From: Candidatus Staskawiczbacteria bacterium
GTDB taxonomy: Bacteria > Patescibacteriota > Minisyncoccia > Minisyncoccales > Staskawiczbacteraceae
Assembly (NCBI GenBank): GCA_026395215.1
Contig: JAPLZC010000012.1
Span: 1 to 63,458, forward strand
Reading direction: 5' to 3'
Length of the DNA stretch: 63,458 nt
Part shown: one piece after another, positions 27,305-27,811 of the stretch
How positions within the stretch are numbered: the first letter of the stretch is position 1
How the letters are laid out: each line of letters opens with the position of its first letter
Program-made: the position numbers and the translations under genes
The notes under the pieces: generated by a model
Seen by the model: only the letters and a program-made list of their open reading frames with translations
What the model was told of the DNA's origin: nothing
The model's database searches: none

Positions 27305-27811
27305 ATGAAAACATACGAGCTAACGTATATAGTTTCTTCGGAGATAACGTCTGAGGAAGCAGAAGCAAAAGGCAAAGAAATAGAATCTGCTATTTCTAGC
27401 AAAGAAGGAACGATTTTAAAACAATCTAATCCTACAGCCAAAACATTTTCATACCCAATAGGCAAAAACGCCTCGGGTTTTCTTGGCGTTTTAGAATTCC
27501 AAATAGATACAGAAAAATTAGTAGAACTACAGAAAATTTTAGAAAAAGACGTAAAAATTGTCCGTCATATGCTTATAATAAAGAAAGCCGCTGAGTTTAA
27601 AAAAGCAAGAAGGACCAGAGAAAAAGCAACTCCAGTTTCTGCTCCAACATTTGAAATAGAAAAGAAAGCAGCCGCCTCCGAAGAGGCGAGCCTCGCCCCA
27701 GAAGGACGGGAAGAACCAACCGAGAAATCGCACACCAAAATTAAAGAAATCAAAGAGAAAGTCGAGTTGAAAGACATAGAACATGAACTCGACGAAATAT
27801 TAGGAGAGTAA
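27305..27811 (+). CDS. rpsF: 30S ribosomal protein S6 with long acidic/basic C-terminal extension
   Basis: MKTYELTYIV...RHMLI S6 core. rpsF-ssb-rpsR synteny. Confidence 0.9.
   Translation: MKTYELTYIVSSEITSEEAEAKGKEIESAISSKEGTILKQSNPTAKTFSYPIGKNASGFLGVLEFQIDTEKLVELQKILEKDVKIVRHMLIIKKAAEFKKARRTREKATPVSAPTFEIEKKAAASEEASLAPEGREEPTEKSHTKIKEIKEKVELKDIEHELDEILGE
27671..27710. repeat. ~40-nt GC-rich double-hairpin element, 'ASLAPEGRE' family, in frame in S6 tail
   Basis: GCCGCCTCCGAAGAGGCGAGCCTCGCCCCAGAAGGACGGG encodes AASEEASLAPEGRE. Confidence 0.8.

Follow-up and report, generated by a model that had tools for sequence, protein, structure and literature searches.

Within the 63,458-nt contig JAPLZC010000012.1 of Candidatus Staskawiczbacteria bacterium (assembly GCA_026395215.1), which was analysed at its full length and is hereafter called the window, the genes of ribosomal protein S6 (rpsF), of the single-stranded DNA-binding protein SSB (ssb) and of a giant surface protein contain the same short GC-rich sequence. 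What this sequence is, and how it came to lie inside the coding frames of such different genes, is the question that the locus raises. The window is AT-rich (35–47% GC per 2-kb segment, mostly <42%) and is part of a 771-kb genome in 15 contigs; its S6 protein falls with those of Candidatus Staskawiczbacteria, in the Patescibacteria. A sequence-only reading of it had proposed that the three genes share a ~40-nt double-hairpin element in coding orientation, and the analysis reported here supports this proposal: the sequence, which we call the twin hairpin, is a real repeat, namely an in-frame palindromic selfish repeat that is unusually small and unusually widely conserved. In our preferred reading, to which we give a probability of about 0.7, the copies belong to a family of ultra-short, non-autonomous mobile (selfish) repeats with invariant feet and free, self-complementary tips. 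The copies found in the window are the following:

5416-5454, minus strand: twin hairpin of 39 nt in the Pro/Ala/Thr-rich linker of the giant Ig-like/Gly-rich surface protein
27671-27709, plus strand: twin hairpin of 39 nt (13 codons) in rpsF, in the C-terminal linker of ribosomal protein S6
28180-28218, plus strand: twin hairpin of 39 nt in ssb, in the disordered linker 3' of the OB fold

All three positions given by the sequence-only reading were recovered within one base, and the peptides that it had quoted were borne out. The copy of the giant protein, in which every block is intact, reads AAPEGASLAPEGR; the rpsF copy reads AASEEASLAPEGR, with one mismatch in the 3' block (GGACGG), and the ssb copy reads AAFAKAGLAQDGR, with one mismatch in the core (GGCGGGCCTCGCC). 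The 13-nt core GGCGAGCCTCGCC, allowing at most one mismatch, gave five strand-matches at these three sites and none in 100 dinucleotide-preserving shuffles of the window (mean 0.00), so that chance can be excluded as the source of the matches.

Anatomy of the twin hairpin and its copies in the genome

The whole genome was searched for further copies by nhmmer and by a looser block scan, using the reversed genome as a control. The block scan revealed seven clear copies with no more than one mismatch in total, compared to zero in the reversed genome, and beside them two decayed relatives, on C13 and in ligA. In addition to the three copies listed above, the following were found:

C7:16943-16990: copy interrupting atpC (ATP synthase epsilon subunit)
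C4:20922-20968: copy from which rpsP (ribosomal protein S16) takes its final codons and its TAG stop
C12:1130-1178: intergenic copy with intact blocks
C15:179407-179456: intergenic copy with intact blocks
C13:33782-33826: decayed relative in a surface protein, reading AAASEEVSVAPEGAE, with 36 of 45 nt in common with the S6 copy
44559-44597 of the window, minus strand: possible decayed relic in the HhH-BRCT linker of ligA, a half-copy whose second hairpin is lost

The two intergenic copies bear on a point that the sequence-only reading had raised as a check, namely whether the element also exists between genes and is more intact there. The ligA sequence, described there as a degenerate copy, is at best a decayed relic: it retains GGCGCC, an intact first hairpin (CGCCTCG-TCTGCTGT-CGGGGCG), the ASLA frame and a core, GGCGAGCTTAGCC, with two mismatches, but it has no second hairpin and, taken alone, is not significant (nhmmer E ~99). 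The location in disordered tails and linkers was confirmed for the S6 and SSB copies, which sit in hypervariable linkers, and for the ligA relic, which lies between the HhH and BRCT domains.

Three invariant blocks, G-CCGCC / GGCGAG-C-CTCGCC / GGCGG, recur in ~95 non-redundant copies from the taxonomic family of this bacterium. They are arranged as 5' block, hairpin tip 1, centre GGCGAG-C-CTCGCC, hairpin tip 2 and 3' block GGCGG; the two tips between them vary from 3 to 33 nt, each being self-complementary with compensatory changes, and the length of the copies in the family ranges accordingly from 30 to 63 nt. Among 69 independent copies, 97% have [T/A]G-CCGCC at the 5' end, and the 3' block is followed by G in 100% and then by A in 71% of the copies. 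The reverse-complement symmetry of the element fails only at its centre base and its outermost base; its strand folds as two hairpins whose CGCC/GGCG feet are identical, with AGCCU as the joint between them.

The copies of the window fold with a minimum free energy of −19 to −28 kcal/mol (z-scores −2.0 to −3.3), each half on its own, as the sequence-only reading had predicted. Both hairpins are supported by covariation over 16 copies: 89.5% of the cells are paired versus ~45% with slid partners, seven pairs are doubly changed, and the observed score was reached by 0 of 500 shuffles. The stems are nearly all Watson-Crick, with occasional bulges. The palindromic centre does allow the alternative structures that had been foreseen, in which the outer blocks pair together and the centre with itself; this is the natural fold of a minimal 31-nt form of the element. 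The composition of the loops tracks the coding strand of the host, being A-rich in sense and T-rich in antisense copies, and a specific RNA loop function is therefore disfavoured. A Rfam scan of positions 27000-28600, with E-values up to 10, matched no relevant family, the sole overlap being a 15-nt PhotoRC-I fragment (13.8 bits). An intrinsic terminator was considered and rejected, as the 3' flanks are GA-rich without a T-run and most copies lie inside open reading frames (ORFs).

Insertion, probable translation and spread

The atpC gene shows the event of insertion at nucleotide resolution. In 19 orthologues the sequence ...AGA ATT ATT GAT GAA AAT... is found without the element, while the Staskawiczbacteria gene has exactly 45 extra nt between ATT and GAT (GCCACC...GGGGCGG). 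The insertion point, ATT^GAT, lies directly before GA; no target-site duplication (TSD) was found here, nor among 69 flank pairs of the family. The Pfam match to the AtpC epsilon beta-sandwich is interrupted at the insert. In the AlphaFold model, the predicted local distance difference test (pLDDT) values are >90 outside the insert and 58–66 within it, with a minimum <50, and the insert, protruding at the tip of a beta-hairpin, models as a flexible loop. The S6 and SSB copies are likewise absent from the orthologues of relatives (29 for each protein). Unfortunately, the best S6 match in a search of 5.8 billion proteins reaches only 74% identity, and for this reason S6 and SSB offer no exact insertion boundaries. 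The copy in S6 recurs in two distant metagenomic S6 lineages, where CGCTCC/GGAGCG is a compensatory change, and an SSB-linker copy is also present in another family (genome G054).

Whole copies, tips included, arise at new sites in unrelated genes. The S6 copy and a copy in the L19 tail of G006 are identical at 37 of 38 positions, tips included; a tip-2 subfamily, CAGAA..TTCTG, occurs in SSB, GrpE, GyrA, the RpoA tail and surface proteins of other families; and near-identical copies appear in bursts in single genomes (16 in G772, 49 in G464 and 40 in G465). Decay by point mutation is visible in the S6, ssb, atpC, C13 and ligA copies. We also considered that the hairpin tips generally derive from the host sequence, in view of the resemblance between the AtpG tip CAT TTT GAA AAA TGG and the host CAT TTA AAA..., and between the SSB tip FAK and the host YGK; this was ruled out by the identical tips in unrelated genes and by the clean 45-nt insertion in atpC.

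In our preferred reading, the element, being mobile but non-autonomous, would move as a folded single strand, recognised at the hairpin feet by a structure-specific enzyme acting in trans. Recognition of the feet is suggested because conservation is confined to them and to the 5-nt linker, the length of the tips being irrelevant. Copies inside genes persist when their length keeps the frame, and then decay by point mutation.

To what extent are the copies translated? In the family, 73 of 98 copies lie in long intact ORFs, the host proteins forming 47 groups; separating mixed groups according to strand and frame, and adding the atpC copy of the Staskawiczbacteria genome, gives 50 independent coding insertions. 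From reading the sequences, without Pfam, we take hosts among them to be AtpG, PolX, UvrA (twice), trigger factor, HolB, UvrC, L19, GatB and PBP2. All host ORFs are intact, and the length is a multiple of three in 63 of 71 coding copies versus 11 of 27 non-coding ones. The independent insertions are more often in sense (36) than in antisense (14; p = 0.003). Among the sense insertions, 33 of 36 are in the Ala-Ala...Gly-Arg-(Glu/Asp) phase (p = 4e-13), with the centre reading ASLA, GEPRP or RASP as set by the tip length, and 10 of the 14 antisense insertions have one common frame (SRP...EAA). Antisense copies, copies in other frames and a copy inside the folded AtpC beta-sandwich extend the picture drawn by the sequence-only reading. 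A preference for a W|GA target does not account for the frame bias by itself: 63% of the sense insertions would then fall in the Ala-Ala phase, versus 92% observed, so that the peptide must also be under selection. We infer that the inserts are translated as hydrophilic loops of 13–15 residues in linkers or at loop tips. An example of the peptides expected from such inserts is AAASEEASLAPEGR.

The distribution among bacteria was assessed by strict pattern scans, in which the reversed pattern, used as a control, gave 0 matches in all three scans. Strict copies, one or more per genome, were found in 35 of the 79 family genomes, in 48 of the 401 order genomes and in 12 of the 401 genomes sampled across the phylum. 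The number of copies per family genome is overdispersed (range 0–9, mean 1.28, variance 4.28), with zero copies in 44 of the 79. Among the matches listed in the scan of named genomes, the blocks are present in many classes of Patescibacteria and in metagenome-assembled genomes (MAGs) labelled Omnitrophota, Brocadiaceae, Chlamydiales, Bacteroidetes, Ignavibacteriota and Gammaproteobacteria, some labels being doubtful, such as that of the 'Gammaproteobacteria' genome G457, of only 0.9 Mb. The copies of Vicinamibacterales have long nested tips and flanks of 61–69% GC and, because of these high-GC flanks, contamination by contigs of the Candidate Phyla Radiation (CPR) cannot account for them.

The minimal 31-nt form, with 3-nt tips, is common. 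In other phyla and classes it often stands between perfect 13–14-nt direct repeats of two tandem lineage-specific heptamers (e.g. GAACGCTGAACGCT), which look like part of a larger composite unit; the 31-nt copies of the Bacteroidetes MAG and of G457 are likewise in frame within genes. In one genome the same heptamers flank all three copies (loci L274, L329, L260 and L278 were examined). High-copy genomes show additional CGCC-N3-GGCG hairpins chained on both sides. In G075 (L082, L088, L089), three twin hairpins ride inside a separate MITE (a miniature transposable element with inverted repeats) of ~300 nt, near its left end; this MITE has 21-nt terminal inverted repeats (TIRs; AATGCGAATCTCGTTTGGCAA) and at least three copies.

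These data suggest that, in the streamlined and gene-dense Patescibacteria, selfish repeats persist largely as translated loops in essential genes. The twin hairpin adds 13–15 residues to S6, SSB, AtpC, AtpG, UvrA, PolX and other proteins, and is thus a source of protein length variation, of annotation artefacts and of spurious 'homology' between unrelated proteins; S6 searches, for instance, match L19 tails via the element. It also offers a convenient marker for recombination and horizontal exchange in uncultured bacteria.

Candidate enzymes and alternative explanations

The leading candidate for the mobilising enzyme is a Y1 (HUH) transposase resembling the tyrosine transposases associated with repetitive extragenic palindromes (REPs), i.e. 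a REP-associated tyrosine transposase (RAYT)-like protein; a small GIY-YIG nuclease is the second candidate. The Staskawiczbacteria genome has three RAYT-like Y1 genes (C15:136238, C13:47226 and C5:32162), whose best NCBIfam match, NF047646 (REP-associated tyrosine transposase), is below the cut-off, and each of them is bracketed by its own REP hairpin. Similar Y1 genes are present in 49 of 79 family genomes. A RAYT as the cognate enzyme was however rejected, since the flanks of ~30 Y1 genes bear hairpins different from the twin hairpin. In G024, several genes, namely atpC (L391) and two Y1 genes, show a single in-frame TGA; an assembly error, pseudogenes or recoding are possible causes.

Small GIY-YIG genes are ubiquitous, with 1–10 per genome, and are located at tRNA genes. 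The Staskawiczbacteria genome has five of them, none near a twin-hairpin copy:

C15:53439-54050, C7:11363, C14:11105, C13:12165: small GIY-YIG genes beside tRNA genes (n = 5)

The sole adjacency found was in another genome (G031:C6:56753-57038, L072), in which a twin-hairpin copy lies 45 nt upstream of a small GIY-YIG gene. As side observations on these genes, the 5' part of the tRNA is duplicated upstream of the one on C14, and in G010:C84 a GIY-YIG gene stands directly upstream of atpG, beside a duplicate of the first 24 codons of atpG.

The ~26 core bases conserved from CPR to Acidobacteriota and anammox Planctomycetota point to a common mobilising or binding activity. We tentatively propose, although we hold it to be rather doubtful, that the invariant feet are the recognition site of a new structure-specific, single-strand insertion or homing enzyme common to bacterial phyla. 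If this were true, the ~30-nt core would rank as the smallest known mobile element, passing from phylum to phylum and colonising essential genes in frame, and the tips would serve as free cargo or as an adaptor, remodelled by the coding sequence of the host.

Several observations weigh against the reading of the twin hairpin as a mobile repeat. Regarding the enzyme, the twin hairpin flanks none of the ~30 RAYT-like/Y1 genes inspected (3 in the Staskawiczbacteria genome and ~27 in relatives and high-copy genomes), which have other hairpins instead, and G005 and G075 have five and nine copies, respectively, without any Y1 gene. Y1 genes are present in 26 of 35 copy-bearing versus 23 of 44 copy-free genomes (Fisher p = 0.06), and the copy number correlates poorly with Y1 and GIY-YIG genes (Spearman rho 0.17 and 0.21, respectively). 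Regarding insertion, atpC is the one clean pair of empty and filled sites found; moreover, in S6, SSB and AtpG the alleles with the element are about as long as those without, so that these sites are unlike simple insertions. Finally, the blocks are perfectly kept at orthologous sites across genera, and the AtpG copies of five genomes retain G/C at nine synonymous positions. This conservation looks like more than neutral decay would leave, as expected from purifying selection or repeated conversion.

How far do other explanations account for the same data? That only low-complexity Ala/Gly/Pro codon bias in disordered linkers is at work, a possibility that the sequence-only reading had itself raised, is practically inconceivable: although copies do lie in Ala/Pro/Glu-rich linkers, chance matches were zero in the window as were those of the reversed-pattern controls in >900 genomes, copies also occur between genes and in antisense, and covariation acts at the nucleotide level. 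The conservation just described would also be explained by a host-functional cis-element, whose feet would serve as an RNA or single-stranded DNA binding or structural signal kept by selection, with mRNA stabilisation or processing, a landing pad for proteins or a replication/repair signal as possible roles. None of the 26 nucleotides of the blocks varies between Patescibacteria, Vicinamibacterales and Brocadiaceae; different genera have preserved orthologous copies in AtpG, PolX, UvrA, UvrC and HolB, retaining G/C at synonymous positions in a genome of 38% GC; compensatory changes such as CGCTCC/GGAGCG in S6 maintain the hairpins; sense copies prevail 36:14; and the stems of the yeast GC42 element are reportedly constrained as well (PMC4478555). 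Such a function is nevertheless quite unlikely, as the hosts are an arbitrary choice of housekeeping and surface proteins, copies stand in either orientation and in several frames, and the loops follow the coding strand of the host and not the strand of the element. Furthermore, most genomes of family, order and phylum, as well as many orthologues, have no copy, several copies are decaying (S6, ssb, atpC, C13, ligA), and neither a Rfam match nor the T-run of a terminator was found.

The mobile-repeat reading also has to be weighed against movement of other kinds. A true REPIN, that is a REP/RAYT doublet moved by its cognate RAYT, is suggested by the two short hairpins with near-dyad symmetry, broken only at the centre and at the outermost base, by the RAYT-like genes common in the family and bracketed by REP hairpins, and by other REP families of the genome, with 11 and 8 copies, which are also in frame within genes of the window. 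We consider it unlikely: the GTAG/CGTC head is absent, the element flanks 0 of the ~30 RAYT-like genes, copies are present in genomes without a Y1 match (G459, G460 and G466 besides G005 and G075), and the core is conserved across phyla, whereas REPs normally co-vary with a lineage-specific RAYT. It could also be that no dedicated enzyme is involved, and that hairpin template switching, gene conversion and homologous transfer of element-bearing alleles after DNA uptake are sufficient. The AtpG site speaks in favour of this: five genomes of three genera have there an element with the same tips, the genes bearing it are scattered in the AtpG tree, forcing at least three changes, and the near-identical atpG genes of G003, G005 and G025 show three unrelated sequences at the site. 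In addition, the tip-1 loop is flipped (TGAA vs TTCA) between orthologous AtpG copies, a hallmark of palindrome inversion, and yeast GC42 reportedly moves between species by recombination at conserved flanks (PMC4478555). By itself this explanation is very unlikely, since recombination at flanks cannot put one unit of 39–45 nt into atpC, rpsF, rplS and surface-protein genes, the 13-nt core does not reach the length needed for RecA-dependent conversion, and bursts of identical copies at many loci of one genome require a copy mechanism. For AtpG, by analogy with GC42, the pattern fits a hot-spot loop with transfer of alleles by recombination at conserved flanks; homologous recombination swapping element-bearing alleles between lineages thus probably also contributes, beside the movement of the mobile repeat.

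Separately, in the atpG of the Staskawiczbacteria genome (~C7 19683-20639) the loop after the F-x-x-H motif is hypervariable (L133-L162). Three unrelated forms of this loop were observed, an EEW-type, a GC-rich YPASAKGSGAARE-type (found in this genome) and the twin-hairpin type, and their distribution contradicts the gene tree.

Neighbouring repeats and comparison with known systems

The window contains other palindromic repeats. A 23-nt REP-type palindrome, GGTGGGRTGTCSGACRYCCCACC, with 11 copies in the genome, is found at 5348-5370, 17469-17491 and 18174-18196; the giant protein, where it stands 46 nt away from the twin hairpin, and uvrC both contain it in frame, and the RAYT-like gene at C5:32162 is bracketed by the same hairpin. 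Another REP family, TTGTTCRACGTCSGACRTCGAACAA, with 8 genome copies, is found at 60502-60526 and has copies on either side of the RAYT-like gene at C13:47226. The uvrC gene contains two hairpins in tandem, CACCCGGTCATCCGACCGGGTG and TGCCCCGTCGAATGACGGGGCA, at 17775-17816, with a similar twin at C15:190649-190690, and a related hairpin, CCCGGTCATCCGACCGGG, lies in ligA at ~44590-44607, just upstream of the possible relic. The hairpin CGCCCAGTGATGAACACTGGGCG at 22020-22042 has a CGCC/GGCG foot as in the twin hairpin; tandem twins of this type, at C7:15585-15628 and C13:69082-69125, were also observed, and hairpins of this type may be a sister family of the twin hairpin. The closest relative, G012 (L032), has an insert of ~105 nt between rpsF and ssb, absent from the window and bounded by a perfect 14-nt inverted repeat (CCCCGTTAGAGGTT / AACCTCTAACGGGG).

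In the literature searched, no paper with the core sequence and no description of the element was found, and none of the best-ranked results tied Patescibacteria or Parcubacteria to REP, REPIN or RAYT. The known systems closest in behaviour are the Rickettsia palindromic elements (RPEs), RPE-1 to RPE-10 (Ogata et al. 2000/2002), which are outlined in PMC10969869 as being of ~100–150 bp, limited to Rickettsia and encoding a conserved peptide. As far as that outline goes, both kinds of element are palindromic, lie in frame in unrelated housekeeping genes of a reduced genome, are read through as an extra peptide compatible with function and have no known transposase; the insertion in frame with the ORF preserved was observed here in the clean atpC insertion and in the 63 of 71 coding copies of 3n length. 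Within the same limits, the twin hairpin differs from RPEs in its size of 30–63 nt, its unrelated sequence, its several frames on both strands and its cross-phylum core.

REPs and REPINs have a GTAG/CGTC head and a RAYT flanked by the repeats, are extragenic and reach tens to hundreds of copies (PMC3116915, PMC3337134, PMC3733652). The twin hairpin resembles them as a GC-rich doublet of short imperfect palindromes in inverted arrangement, with identical CGCC/GGCG feet, in its near-dyad symmetry, in its long persistence and in sharing its genomes with RAYT-like genes; both probably move as single-stranded DNA. Unlike them, it has no GTAG/CGTC head in 69 independent copies, is mostly intragenic with 0–9 copies per family genome, flanks no inspected RAYT-like gene and is present in Y1-free genomes.

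A further parallel is offered by the GC clusters of mitochondria, represented by yeast GC42, for which constrained stems and transfer between species are reported (PMC4478555). These clusters are, like the twin hairpin, GC-rich hairpins of ~40 nt in AT-rich, compact genomes, with conserved stems and free loops; their copies merge or nest, exchange alleles by recombination at the flanks and are occasionally genic, and no enzyme has been assigned to them. In contrast to the twin hairpin, they are organellar, mostly intergenic and flanked by AG/ACT repeats, while the twin hairpin is bacterial, mostly in frame in genes and without target duplication at the one clean site. The double-hairpin elements that have reportedly been described in the mitochondria of Allomyces by Paquin et al. 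2000 (cited in PMC4478555) belong with the GC clusters in this comparison.

Palindrome-associated transposable elements (PATEs), derived from IS200/IS605, consist of minimal left-end and right-end hairpins, insert without target duplication, strand-specifically and 3' of a fixed short motif, and depend on a cognate Y1 TnpA. The twin hairpin shares with them two subterminal similar hairpins, the polar asymmetry of the element and the insertion next to a short motif without duplication; it differs from them as no TnpA with matching ends was found and no tetranucleotide target is seen beyond the downstream GA (100% G, 71% A). Classical MITEs such as Correia and ERIC are, like the twin hairpin, short non-autonomous repeats able to form in-frame fusions, but in the latter only the 5-bp CCGCC/GGCGG ends pair, transposase-derived TIRs are missing and the Staskawiczbacteria copies show no TSD. 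The twin hairpin therefore is not an RPE, because of its size and lineage, nor a REPIN, lacking the GTAG head and a cognate RAYT, nor a MITE, lacking TIRs and TSD; it is placed, by the features that define each of them, outside RPEs, REPINs and mitochondrial GC clusters. What is new here is a sequence-unrelated and ultra-small form of a known kind of repeat, the in-frame palindromic selfish repeat.

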